This document shows positions 1,481-4,565 of a DNA stretch of 29,790 nt, in pieces. A program made the position numbers and the translations under genes. The notes beneath the pieces were generated by a model. The model did no database searches. It was not told the DNA's origin and saw only the letters and a program-made list of their open reading frames with translations. Origin of the DNA: a virus. How positions within the stretch are numbered: position 1 is the first letter of the stretch; every line of letters starts with the position of its first letter. The stretch lies in UHGV virus genome UHGV-1477313; one strand, given 5' to 3'.

Positions 1481-1494
1481 AACCATATATGGTT
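1481..1494. promoter_or_regulatory. 14-bp perfect palindrome AACCATATATGGTT in the AT-rich intergenic region between tailspike and lysis genes
   Basis: Read directly. The core CCATATATGG recurs at 4556..4565 on the other side of the tailspike gene. Confidence 0.4.
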
Positions 1495-1540
1495 AAATAT
1501 GGGCGTACTTTATTACACCCATATAATATTTTTAATTATA

Positions 1541-4489
1541 TCAATATGTTATGCCATCAAGACTAATGTTACCTGTAGAGAATCCATATATTTTGATTGT
1601 TCCGTTAGTATCTATAACGATATTACCCTGCCCAATCGGATTACCACTTGCATCAAGTTTTGTAACAGAAAATGCCATTTTCCTAACTGGCGAGATGCTC
1701 AACGGAAGGTTGCATACTGTCGTACCGTCGGCGGTTATACCTGTTCCGATGTTAGAGATAGTGCCAGTTAATGCAATTTTACCATCGGGATATGATGTTA
1801 CAGCAGCATGAACCAGTGCAGTTACTGACCAGCCATTTGCCCCCCACACACCTGGCATCCAGTGGTTAATTATAGGATCATTACGTCTACCGAACATATG
1901 TGATGCAATAGCTCTGGCATTTGACAAGCCGAGAAGAATTCTTCCGTATGTGGTCGGGTGAATGTTGTCCATAACAACAGGGTCCTGATTTGTCAGGAGA
2001 TATTCGGCTACGATTGGTCCGAGATCGTCAAGAGAACCAGTATTCAGGGCATTAAGCGGCTGATTAACCTCTTTATTACAAACAGCTACTGTGTTGGCAA
2101 GTATCGCCCTGTAAAGCGCCCCACGCTCGTAATTTGCCGAAGGCTGTCCATAACCAGCAACCCCGGTTAACGTAACACTCTGATCTCTGGTATAGAACTG
2201 TGTAGGCAAAGATACAATGCAGGGAATCCCAAGGTTATTTGCAGTCAGCATCATCTGCTTAACGTTATCTCGTAATGCCTCTCGTCCGGATTGCCTTTGA
2301 ATATCATTCACTCCGATTTGGAAAAGCACTACATCGATATCATCCAACGATGTGGCATTAAATATATTAGCGATATCTCCTGATGCATACCCACTTATTG
2401 CAATTGTCTGCATACGTCCAACGCGAATGCCATGAGTTCCTTCTAGTGCTTGTTGCGCGAACTGTACCCATCCATTTCCCATAGAGGCATCAGTGATTGA
2501 ATCGCCTACAACAGCGATATTTATCGGTTTTGCAGAGCGGTATTGTCGATTTTCGATAATGTATGGATAGAAGACAGACATATACTCACCGCCATCGCCA
2601 AGTGATCCAAATCCTACACGACCAATGATTCTCCCGGTTTGACGAATTGTAACTCGCTCTATCCCGTTAACCAGGATAGTGAATGACTTAAGCGTATCAA
2701 CACGAACGGATGCAATACTGTTTTTTAGCCATTGTGAAGCATGAGTATCAGATCCAGCATATGCAATGCTTTTTGTAGAGCATGCTCCGCCAATTGTTCC
2801 CTCAACTAAAGTACCATGTCCAAAACGATCCTCGTAATATATCCACCGCATATTTTCAGCTTCAACTACAACGCATGGCACACCACCGGTGTTGTCACCC
2901 TCATACATCGACACGAAATATTCAGAGCACGGCTTCACTCTGCTGTATGCAGCAAAAACAAGATTCCCTGTAGGGGCTGGAATGGACACAGCATCGTCAG
3001 AAAGTGACGCCGCTGGGGTATCTGCAACAACACCCATAGGCCAGGAACCAGACAGGAAAGACCACCCAGAAGTAAAGACAGTTAATACTGGCGTTTCTTT
3101 ATCCGGAATATCGCAAAATAACGTTTTATTGTCTGTGTAGTTTGCATTTTTTATGATGGGAGGGGTTGGAGGTGTTCCAGGAACAAGTGGTGTATATTCG
3201 CCTTTTGTAATTCCAACACTTGAACGTAATAAATAACTGGTACTATTACCAGTAAAAAAGAATTTTACAGGTCTGACAAGTTTTACCAATGGTGATTTGA
3301 CAGCTTCATCGCTTGCAGTATTAATTGTCACGCTATCATCTACGTCAAGTATGAATCCATTCCAGTATCCAGCAGGAATCTCTGGTGTAAATACCATACT
3401 AACAATAGTTTTAGAATTAATTCTAATTGTCTTATCTCTTGTTGAAACATACGATTTTAGACTGTCAAGAGCAGCACGGTAGTCATGCCCAGGAACGCCG
3501 CCAAAAGTTGAAATATTTGCAGGTGATACTAAGTCAAACCTTGACCCATCAGGGGTAACAAAGTAACTTCCTCCATCTGTGTCACCTGCAGTACCGATCC
3601 CTGTTCGTATGTAAGTAGCACCACCACCATCATTAAATGAGTATCTACCACCAGTAATGATACAACCGATAACTGAATCAACCATGGAAGACATTGCATC
3701 ATTTGTTGATTTATAAACTTTTGTAGTTTCATATATGGCGCTTCGTAGTGTTGCATCACTTACATATCGCCATGCACCTGGAGCAATACCACCTGTAGTT
3801 TGCGGTGTAGATTCAGGAGGTACTAACTTAGGAAGGGGGCCATCCCAGCGATAATATTCTCCATCACTTTCAAACAATAAAACATCGTTTGGATATGTTA
3901 ATGTATTACCTAATTCAAAAGATCTTCTTATGTTATATCCATAAAGACCATTATTGATGGTATTTATAATTGTATTAACTGTCTGCATAAGGTATTGATA
4001 AATATCATCAACATACCCTTTATTTGCAGCATCATTACGATCAAAAGGTGCAAGCAAGTTTTTAATAAACTGATGTTTTGCATCATAAAAATTAGAAATA
4101 ACAGTTGGTTTTGTCAACGCCAACCTTGTCCATGAATAACACTGTTGGATCAACATTGTCAGTTTATCAAAAGCATCCTCATGAACCTCTGCGAAGAACT
4201 TACCCTGATTGCGAAGATCTGTTTCCTGCGTAACCGGAATTTCTCGCGATATGGAAATCTGATATCCATTTGTCAGAGCGGTTGACAGAATGACGTTACC
4301 TCCAGTGTACCCACCGGCCCCGGTTACCGTGTAATCTGTATCAAGTGCCAATACTGTCAAGTTTTCATCCAGGTCTACAACCTGAACAACCAGATCAGAC
4401 TTCTGAAAAATTCTGAAGGTATAAGGGAATGTCGTCGTGACGCCATTCCCGGTGTATTCGTTATGGTCGACTTCGGTTGAGACCGTCAT
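1541..4489 (-). CDS. Tailspike protein with conserved N-terminal particle-binding domain and an internal SGNH/GDSL hydrolase (esterase) domain
   Basis: 982-aa ORF with GGAG SD before ATG 4489. The N-terminus (MTVSTEVDHNEYTGNGVTTTFPYTF..) looks like podovirus tailspike head-binding domains. Residues about 655-850 (nt about 1940-2527) carry SGNH blocks: GDSIT (Ser664), GVND (726-729), DNIHP (Asp841/His844). Confidence 0.8.
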   Translation of the reverse strand: MTVSTEVDHNEYTGNGVTTTFPYTFRIFQKSDLVVQVVDLDENLTVLALDTDYTVTGAGGYTGGNVILSTALTNGYQISISREIPVTQETDLRNQGKFFAEVHEDAFDKLTMLIQQCYSWTRLALTKPTVISNFYDAKHQFIKNLLAPFDRNDAANKGYVDDIYQYLMQTVNTIINTINNGLYGYNIRRSFELGNTLTYPNDVLLFESDGEYYRWDGPLPKLVPPESTPQTTGGIAPGAWRYVSDATLRSAIYETTKVYKSTNDAMSSMVDSVIGCIITGGRYSFNDGGGATYIRTGIGTAGDTDGGSYFVTPDGSRFDLVSPANISTFGGVPGHDYRAALDSLKSYVSTRDKTIRINSKTIVSMVFTPEIPAGYWNGFILDVDDSVTINTASDEAVKSPLVKLVRPVKFFFTGNSTSYLLRSSVGITKGEYTPLVPGTPPTPPIIKNANYTDNKTLFCDIPDKETPVLTVFTSGWSFLSGSWPMGVVADTPAASLSDDAVSIPAPTGNLVFAAYSRVKPCSEYFVSMYEGDNTGGVPCVVVEAENMRWIYYEDRFGHGTLVEGTIGGACSTKSIAYAGSDTHASQWLKNSIASVRVDTLKSFTILVNGIERVTIRQTGRIIGRVGFGSLGDGGEYMSVFYPYIIENRQYRSAKPINIAVVGDSITDASMGNGWVQFAQQALEGTHGIRVGRMQTIAISGYASGDIANIFNATSLDDIDVVLFQIGVNDIQRQSGREALRDNVKQMMLTANNLGIPCIVSLPTQFYTRDQSVTLTGVAGYGQPSANYERGALYRAILANTVAVCNKEVNQPLNALNTGSLDDLGPIVAEYLLTNQDPVVMDNIHPTTYGRILLGLSNARAIASHMFGRRNDPIINHWMPGVWGANGWSVTALVHAAVTSYPDGKIALTGTISNIGTGITADGTTVCNLPLSISPVRKMAFSVTKLDASGNPIGQGNIVIDTNGTIKIYGFSTGNISLDGITY

Positions 4490-4555
4490 GTTAAATCTCC
4501 AGATAGTCGCAGCACCCGTTGCGCCGCATATCCGGTTATTCTATTACCTGAAAAA

Positions 4556-4565
4556 CCATATATGG
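4556..4565. promoter_or_regulatory. CCATATATGG palindrome upstream of the tailspike gene (second copy of the motif at 1483..1492)
   Basis: Read directly; lies about 70 bp upstream of the tailspike start in the divergent intergenic region. Confidence 0.4.

Follow-up and report, generated by a model that had tools for sequence, protein, structure and literature searches.

A conserved, putatively operator-like dyad on either side of the tailspike gene in the late region of a Uetakevirus

Introduction

Why should the tailspike gene of an epsilon15/phiV10-like phage lie between two copies of the same short palindrome? The stretch of DNA considered here, hereafter called the window, comprises 29,790 nucleotides of the virus genome UHGV-1477313 and represents, in the minus-strand direction, the late region of a Uetakevirus; at the DNA level it matches phage PH444 and phiV10 best, with ~90% identity across half of its first 8 kb. 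A preliminary description of this sequence had reported 10-bp palindromes flanking the tailspike gene (1541..4489, minus strand) and had suggested that they are either shared promoter or activator sites of the tailspike and lysis transcription units or conserved junctions for cassette exchange. The Uetakeviruses (epsilon15, phiV10 and SPC32H) are model phages for the study of podovirus structure, of O-antigen conversion and of the Rep-Ant induction switch, and phiV10 derivatives have served as reporter phages for E. coli O157. Opposite-strand genes separate the tailspike and lysis units from the main late operon, and in the records and literature reached we found no account of their transcription in Uetakeviruses. 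Our analysis indicates that the two palindromes are representatives of a degenerate dyad that recurs in compact control regions, and we estimate the probability that it is an operator-like site of a putative dimeric regulator at roughly 0.55.

Results

The palindrome pair and its conservation in relatives

The 10-mer CCATATATGG occurs exactly twice in the window, at 1483-1492 and 4556-4565, so that the palindrome pair was borne out, as was its reported gene context, with one copy between the tailspike stop and the lysis genes and the other upstream of the tailspike start (67 bp from the ATG). The exact word common to both sites is 13 nt long (AAACCATATATGG). On the lysis side the core 1483-1492 lies within a perfect 14-bp palindrome, AACCATATATGGTT (1481..1494), and on the tailspike side the core 4556-4565 lies within AACCATATATGGAT (4554..4567), which is palindromic at 13/14 positions and identical to AACCATATATGGTT at 13/14 positions; neither dyad, nor any of the operator-type sites treated below, is assigned to a strand. 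Some 10-bp palindrome is found twice in 49% of simulated 30-kb windows, and TGACATGTCA is present three times in the window studied here. Repetition of a 10-bp palindrome is thus common by chance, and the case has to rest on comparative evidence. A chance repeat without function would fit this simulated frequency and the AT-rich intergenic DNA (33-37% GC) in which both sites lie, but it is effectively refuted, as the 13-nt word appeared in 0/100 dinucleotide shuffles, both sites are conserved in position in ~60-80 relatives, and their spacing to neighbouring operators is fixed (see below). The pair stands out from chance by its 13-nt extension, by its intergenic placement and, chiefly, by the conservation of both sites in ~80 relatives.

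These relatives are 80 IMG/VR loci retrieved via the conserved tailspike N-terminus, plus epsilon15 and phiV10; most of the loci cover part of the genome only and leave out the immunity region. Conservation at the corresponding positions, on which the preliminary description had made its proposal depend, was indeed found: both sites are kept in ~80 relatives as the degenerate dyad aaCCATATATGGTT. The genus-wide element is best described as aAACC-ATATAT-GGTTt, a degenerate dyad of 4-6-4 layout in which conserved outer bases enclose an AT-rich centre. On the lysis side, AACCATATATGGT-TTATTGTGTATGATG is found in 59 loci, with the ribosome-binding site and the beginning of the holin-like gene after it, and the forms encountered among these loci include CCATATATGG, CCACATATGG, CCATATGTGG and CCGTATATGG. 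On the tailspike side, (T/C/A)CATAT(A/G)(T/A/C)GGTT is kept in 82 loci, where the order of elements is a LexA-box-like site, AAT(T/C)ACC-N5-GGTAAT, a variable stretch of ~24-27 nt, the dyad, five bases and GGTAATAGAAT. In dereplicated position counts, C1, A4, T5, G8, G9, T10 and T11 hardly vary at either site, the mirror positions 3 and 6 vary more than any others of the dyad, and the tailspike-site dyad contains ~1.6 bits per position vs. ~0.8 in the six bases upstream. The lysis site shows good dyad symmetry, the tailspike site a partial one. The perfect 10-mer occurs at both sites in just 3/58 related genomes, so the exact identity of the two copies in the window is incidental; concerted evolution of the copies was rejected because variants at the two sites are uncorrelated.

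Several established types of site were considered. An intrinsic terminator was rejected, since a terminator scan returned no terminator-like site at either motif and the dyad could form just an AT-rich stem of 4-5 bp, and, as CATATG is absent from the perfect dyad, a DNA-methylase target of this kind was likewise discarded. To our knowledge, none of the sites of host factors (IHF, Fis, CRP, LexA and others) fits the dyad. A literature search with the motif word and "phage" returned eukaryotic or vector contexts only, and the epsilon15 and phiV10 records, which annotate repressor, IHF, RNase III and terminator sites, show nothing at the dyads.

Further copies and their spacing to Rep operators

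A weight matrix built from the dyads detected two more, degenerate copies in the window. The third, AACCAGATAAGGTT (4933..4946; 17 bits), overlaps the stop codon of ant; it is present in the 31 relatives that have both the downstream operator-like site and the post-ant sequence of the window, which contains matches to c4-a1b1, isrK and C4 RNA, and it is absent in the 37 relatives where a terminator directly follows ant. The fourth, AACCACATATGATT (23460..23473; late strand AATCATATGTGGTT; 16.8 bits), is located upstream of a small gene preceding the portal gene and is nearly invariant in the 80 relatives. As would be expected of an operator, the conserved, dyad-symmetric site thus recurs, with four copies in the window and five modules in phiV10, three of which are also found in epsilon15.

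Most of these copies have a Rep operator as their neighbour. The operator consensus, ATTACC-N5-GGTAAT, was confirmed on the sites annotated as "repressor" in the epsilon15 record. In the window, the operator next to the tailspike-side dyad is ATTACCTTTCAGGTGAT (4593..4609), whose epsilon15 homologue is annotated as a "repressor" binding site; a pattern search detected the operator-like TTTACCTTTGCGGTAAA (4973..4989) next to the third dyad, and ATTACCTTCAAGGTAAA (23511..23527), next to the fourth, corresponds to an annotated repressor site in epsilon15 (2931-2947). Altogether, operator-like sites are dispersed over the late region, where the window has 8 and phiV10 has 15. The operator at 4593..4609 is present in 82/82 relatives at 39.5-41.5 bp from the tailspike-side dyad (40.5 bp in the window), and the centre-to-centre distance is 41.5 bp for the third dyad and 52.5 bp for the fourth, the latter distance being the same in phiV10 and epsilon15. 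The five modules of phiV10 have distances of 40.5, 41.5, 43.5, 52.5 and 19.5 bp, and the three modules detected in epsilon15 have 43.5, 52.5 and 19.5 bp despite diverged intervening sequence; the tailspike copy of epsilon15 is too degenerate for the scan, and a post-ant copy is absent from this phage. Among unique modules, the distance is 40.5 +/- 1 bp in 48/48 on the tailspike side and 43.5 +/- 1 bp in 31/32 on the lysis side. In phiV10, 5/6 dyad matches lie 19.5-52.5 bp from an operator-like site, and such neighbourhoods (<55 bp) make up ~4% of the genome. The 24-27 nt between operator and dyad are poorly conserved in sequence and fixed in length, and by calculation the -10 element begins 57.5 bp from the operator centre at both the tailspike and the lysis promoter described below. 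The distances are near multiples of a helical turn, which, with five module types, is no more than suggestive.

The dyad itself does not behave as a Rep operator, since AACC-N6-GGTT was not recovered by the search for ATTACC-N5-GGTAAT with up to 3 mismatches. It also survives in at least 10 lineages in which the lysis-side operator has been replaced, including the window, and it thus has a role that does not depend on the operator. The lysis-side operator is absent mainly where the tailspike stop is <80 bp from the dyad. We considered that this operator might belong to the promoter of a conversion gene; this was rejected because it is also present in loci with gaps of 93-412 bp and no conversion gene, and it is accordingly an ancestral part of the module that has been lost at the junction.

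Other operator-like sites were noted in the late region: a tandem pair (26652-26668 and 26670-26686) at the start of the terminase-small gene, directly after a rho-independent terminator, and a single site (6019-6035) that follows the Bro-N gene. The dispersal of repressor-type sites through the late region is reminiscent of "stoperators". A LexA-box-like sequence, CTGTATATTTATACAG (4648..4663), which was read from the sequence upstream of ant and is conserved in relatives, presumably functions as reported for SPC32H.

Promoter context

A position-weight scan for sigma70 promoters, run over all unique relatives, supports in outline that each of the two copies flanking the tailspike gene sits in a predicted sigma70-like promoter, directed into the tailspike or the lysis cassette. 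The predicted tailspike promoter (4538..4566, minus strand) combines a -35 element TCCATA (4566-4561) and a -10 element TAGAAT (4543-4538) with a 17-bp spacer, and it passes the scan on the late strand at one fixed position in 63/65 unique relatives. In these, the -35 variants TCCATA, TTCATA and TACATA are found 17 bp from TAGAAT, TAAAAT or TACAAT; only the third base of the -10 element varies (TA[G/A/C]AAT), the pattern expected of a real -10, and TCCATA/TTCATA matches TTGACA at 3-4 of 6 positions with 17-bp spacing. The lysis promoter of the window (1468..1496, minus strand), predicted by the consensus scan, has TTAACC (1496-1491), a 17-bp spacer and TATGAT (1473-1468). Its -10 element, TATGAT or TATAAT, is at a fixed position in 41/52 unique relatives, with TATGAT changed to TATAAT in several lineages, and its -35 element, T(T/A)A(A/T)CC, is weak and variable. 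The dyad overlaps the -35 element and upstream spacer of both predicted promoters, with its centre at ~-29.5 (tailspike) and ~-26.5 (lysis).

The motif could, therefore, be merely the -35 and spacer of two related sigma70 promoters, either duplicated or converged, in which case a dedicated regulator would not be required and the palindrome would be incidental. The conserved left half does constitute the -35 hexamer 17 bp from TAGAAT in the same 63/65 tailspike-site sequences, conservation at this site is asymmetric, and perfect palindromes at both sites are as rare as stated above. However, the non-consensus bases of the putative -35 element (C1 and T3) and the spacer GGTT are nearly invariant, which sigma70 would not explain and which points to another reader; the motif at the lysis site is shifted by 3 bp relative to the -10; a -10 at the corresponding late-strand position is missing from the copy at 4933-4946 and from that at ~33.1 kb in phiV10; and the fixed spacing to the Rep operators is left unexplained. 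We consider it quite unlikely, therefore, that sigma70 is the sole reader of the motif. The suggestion of shared promoter or activator sites is supported in outline, in that the -10 elements are conserved and the dyad covers the predicted -35 and spacer, but the motif is not confined to these two units.

The tailspike, lysis and 23460-23473 copies fit late-strand promoters, and the first and last of these share GGTT-N5-GGTAATA. Plus-strand promoters are also predicted abutting the 4933-4946 and the tailspike-side copies (TTGCAA-17-TATATT and TAGACA-17-GATATT); their -10 elements overlap the Rep operator, and the dyad centre would fall at ~-41.5. A single direction of transcription for all modules could not be maintained, as the 4933-4946 copy travels with the plus-strand post-ant sequence and the others fit late-strand promoters; one bound protein could conceivably act in opposite ways on back-to-back promoters.

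Homology boundaries and tailspike exchange

The boundaries of homology were determined by blastn of the window against the 80 loci. Homology of the lysis block ends at 1489-1502, i.e., at the lysis-side copy, in 66/70 loci with other tailspikes. A second boundary is located at 4137-4146 in 74/80 loci, inside the tailspike gene, after approximately codon 116 and past the conserved N-terminal anchor, and no boundary was obtained at 4540-4580, where the tailspike-side copy lies within a conserved block. The exchangeable segment thus extends from ~1500 to 4140; in relatives it also holds opposite-strand O-antigen conversion genes, for example oac in phiV10 and gp21/gp22 in epsilon15. The earlier idea of conserved cassette-exchange junctions consequently finds a counterpart in the break at the lysis-side copy, but not at the tailspike-side copy, the junction at that end being within the gene.

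The question is, then, whether the motifs serve as linkers or junctions and thus favour the exchange of tailspike cassettes through recombination between phages. The coincidence of the lysis-side motif with the end of homology (within ~10 bp) would be in agreement with this, as would the at least 10 unrelated sequences that abut the upstream edge of the lysis-side dyad in different lineages. A stretch of 10-14 bp is, however, short for homologous recombination, and the long conserved flanks (an anchor of ~350 bp plus the ant region on one side and a lysis block of ~1.5 kb on the other) already explain exchange. Moreover, the motif also occurs away from the borders of variable cassettes, e.g., at 23460-23473, and wherever a lineage has retained the adjacent Rep operator, sequence can be aligned beyond the lysis-side dyad. 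A role as a recombination junction is, in our opinion, highly improbable, and the break on the lysis side is better read as the upstream edge of a regulatory block that is probably under selection than as a recombination signal.

A study of tailspike modularity covers anchor/receptor-binding-domain exchange in Uetakevirus and describes flanking motifs for lytic genera only (PMC10408124). For the engineering of receptor-binding swaps, the data place the natural junctions after approximately codon 116 of the tailspike and immediately upstream of AACCATATATGGTT, and AACCATATATGGTT should stay together with the lysis leader. The receptor-binding part of the window (1541 to about 4137, minus strand), i.e., the exchangeable cassette, is itself rare: among 5,426 complete genomes of E. 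coli just 1 contains it, at 91% identity and under the annotation GDSL-type esterase/lipase, and the conserved anchor (about 4138-4489, minus strand) with its upstream region was present in 553 of the same genomes.

RNA structure at the lysis leader

The 5' leader of the lysis transcript is predicted to fold into a long hairpin (1423..1493, minus strand; -35.5 kcal/mol, z = -6.6), which buries the Shine-Dalgarno sequence and AUG of a 12-codon upstream open reading frame (ORF; MHSKRWSLCQPG). A consensus structure of 21 pairs is kept in 48 sequences, mostly by wobble-compatible changes, and the homologous stretch of epsilon15 is annotated as "RNaseIII". These features raise the possibility that what is conserved is not a DNA site but RNA structure or processing, for example an RNase III hairpin, of late transcripts that read through. 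Nevertheless, this structure uses just three bases of the dyad, at the base of the hairpin, and its covariation is weak (-0.41); the tailspike-side region has no significant fold (z = -1.4); a search of Rfam gave no family match at either motif; and the other copies of the dyad are in unrelated transcript contexts. It is thus scarcely probable that RNA accounts for the motif, and the hairpin seems to explain much of the conservation downstream of the dyad and not the dyad itself.

The predicted lysis -10 is located within the 5' arm of the hairpin, so that the full stem could form only in transcripts reading through from the tailspike gene. This may restrict translation of the lysis genes to promoter-proximal transcripts. 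A separate, small hairpin, GGGTGTA-ATAAAG-TACGCCC followed by ATATTT, is present at 1500-1519 (minus strand), between the tailspike stop and the dyad; it falls below the T-run criterion of the terminator scan and could be a weak terminator of the tailspike transcript.

Gene layout and other features of the window

Gene content was assigned from ORFs and PHROG/Pfam matches. The lysis cassette is encoded on the minus strand and consists of a holin-like membrane protein as its first gene (1427..1014, with alternative starts at 1427 and 1418), followed by a holin (1027..719) and an endolysin (729..103). The tailspike has 982 amino acids and PHROG tail matches. Beyond it, a block of opposite-strand (plus) genes comprises ant (4685-4942), a Bro-N antirepressor gene (5258-5953) and a YafO-like toxin gene (6198-6674), after which the minus strand holds the structural genes, the portal and terminase genes and a gp49-like regulator gene (27113..26772).

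Between ant and the Bro-N gene, the stretch 5012-5210 (plus strand) has Rfam matches to isrK (76.7 bits) and C4 antisense RNA (77.7 bits), and a c4-a1b1 target match (41.7 bits) slightly below the gathering score of 46.7 bits. It has the appearance of an immI-like antisense control cassette of the P1/P7 type that has been inserted in a Uetakevirus, and it is found in some relatives only.

The gp49-like "transcriptional regulator" (26772-27113, minus strand; PHROG 536) is basic at the N-terminus and rich in Cys at the C-terminus (CGKCG...CPCNG...C), and it yielded no match in Pfam, NCBIfam or PDB. For this reason it was set aside as binder of the dyad; it is a candidate zinc-binding late regulator, encoded directly upstream of the late-operon terminator. 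A second perfect palindrome, the 12-bp GTGACATGTCAC, occurs three times, always at a punctuation point of the late operon: beside the terminator after the last structural gene, just past the terminase-large stop, and at the 3' end of the gp49-like gene, where it precedes the terminator ahead of the terminase-small gene (6942-6953, 24499-24510 and 26764-26775). It could be a site for a late regulator or an antiterminator.

Discussion

The dyad is most likely the operator of a putative dimeric helix-turn-helix regulator. Its existence, conservation, positions and spacings are matters of observation, as are the homology breakpoints. In the arrangement that we propose, the two copies at either end of the tailspike segment would belong to compact control regions in which they cover the -35 and spacer of predicted promoters. 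The late strand is split by opposite-strand genes (ant, the C4/isrK RNA region and Bro-N, and in relatives the O-antigen conversion genes), which makes it plausible that the tailspike and lysis units would require separate promoters. In most copies of the genus, the dyad and a Rep operator at a fixed, roughly helically phased distance would form a bipartite module. A protein bound to the dyad would occlude or remodel the late-direction promoter, and on 4554-4567 or 4933-4946 it would, in addition, be positioned at ~-41.5 from the predicted opposite-strand promoters. The bracketing of the tailspike gene would then be a by-product of where control regions are placed, and the lysis-side copy would mark a mosaic boundary because it is the outermost element of a lysis block retained by selection. 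What we infer in this scheme is that the promoters are active, as well as the direction in which they act and the identity of the protein that binds.

Several points weigh against this interpretation. Symmetry at the tailspike site is imperfect, with the left half CATAT far better conserved than A6/T7 of the right half, and a -35-like element could explain part of this asymmetric pattern. The distance from the dyad centre to the -10 is 17 bp at the tailspike and 14 bp at the lysis promoter, a shift of 3 bp. In the AT-rich regions concerned several overlapping promoter predictions are possible on both strands, so that the direction of action is ambiguous. The strong hairpin in the lysis leader at least partly explains the downstream conservation at that site. 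A terminator precedes the terminase genes, which hints at late transcription driven by antitermination, and internal promoters could then be dispensable. Finally, the literature reached, to which the key SPC32H and epsilon15 papers did not belong, contained no start-site, binding or expression data for the dyads.

A variant of the operator interpretation assigns the dyad to Rep itself. Rep reportedly binds DNA as a tetramer, and the pairs of DNA-binding domains that read a palindrome come from different dimers (PMC9638917, citing Kim et al. 2016). The dyad might then be a second, low-affinity site, with a tetrameric Rep bridging to the strong ATTACC-N5-GGTAAT operator. One Rep tetramer would span the operator and, at a distance of 2, 4 or 5 helical turns, the AACC-N6-GGTT dyad, and would, in the lysogen, clamp the -35 and spacer of the internal late promoters (tailspike, lysis and portal), all of which the Ant antirepressor would release at once. 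We regard this variant as unlikely, but if true, it would amount to genome-wide silencing by an "operator plus auxiliary dyad" and would provide a reason for the repressor being tetrameric.

Under the favoured interpretation, a dedicated dimeric regulator, the dyad would be a previously unannotated phage operator-like element that is of a familiar kind and stands in a notably regular bipartite arrangement. A second dyad locked at a fixed spacing to Rep operators offers a testable handle on the regulation of the tailspike and lysis genes and may bear on the role of the second DNA-binding face of the Rep tetramer.

How does this element compare with known systems? Its 10-mer is identical to a CArG box, CC(A/T)6GG, of eukaryotic SRF/MADS factors, a eukaryotic system that has no bearing here. 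Like the conserved linkers at module junctions of mosaic temperate phages and the motifs that flank receptor-binding domains (PMC10408124), the lysis-side copy comes last among the conserved elements ahead of the variable tailspike and conversion segment; the situation differs in that the second junction falls within the tailspike gene, copies of the motif are also found away from variable cassettes, and retention of the lysis-side dyad would be explained by a regulatory role. With the Rep operators of the epsilon15/SPC32H type the dyad shares its palindromic nature, an ACC...GGT core and a dispersed intergenic distribution, usually 19.5-52.5 bp from such an operator, whereas the Rep operator is 17 bp long, has an N5 centre and has TT instead of AA before ACC. 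The many repressor-type sites in short intergenic gaps of the structural and lysis region resemble the stoperators of mycobacteriophage L5; those are, however, asymmetric and orientation-dependent, and the operator-like sites described here are symmetric and paired with a second, different dyad. The operators of the phage 434 repressor and Cro are 14 bp long, ACAA-N6-TTGT (e.g., ACAATATATATTGT), and are read by XRE-family helix-turn-helix dimers. The dyad appears to resemble these operators in being a 14-bp dyad of 4-6-4 layout with four conserved outer bases that lies over promoter elements, and in having an AT-rich centre that tolerates mirror changes (T to C at position 3 and A to G at position 6); it differs from them in its outer bases, AACC/GGTT, and in that its binder is a putative one.

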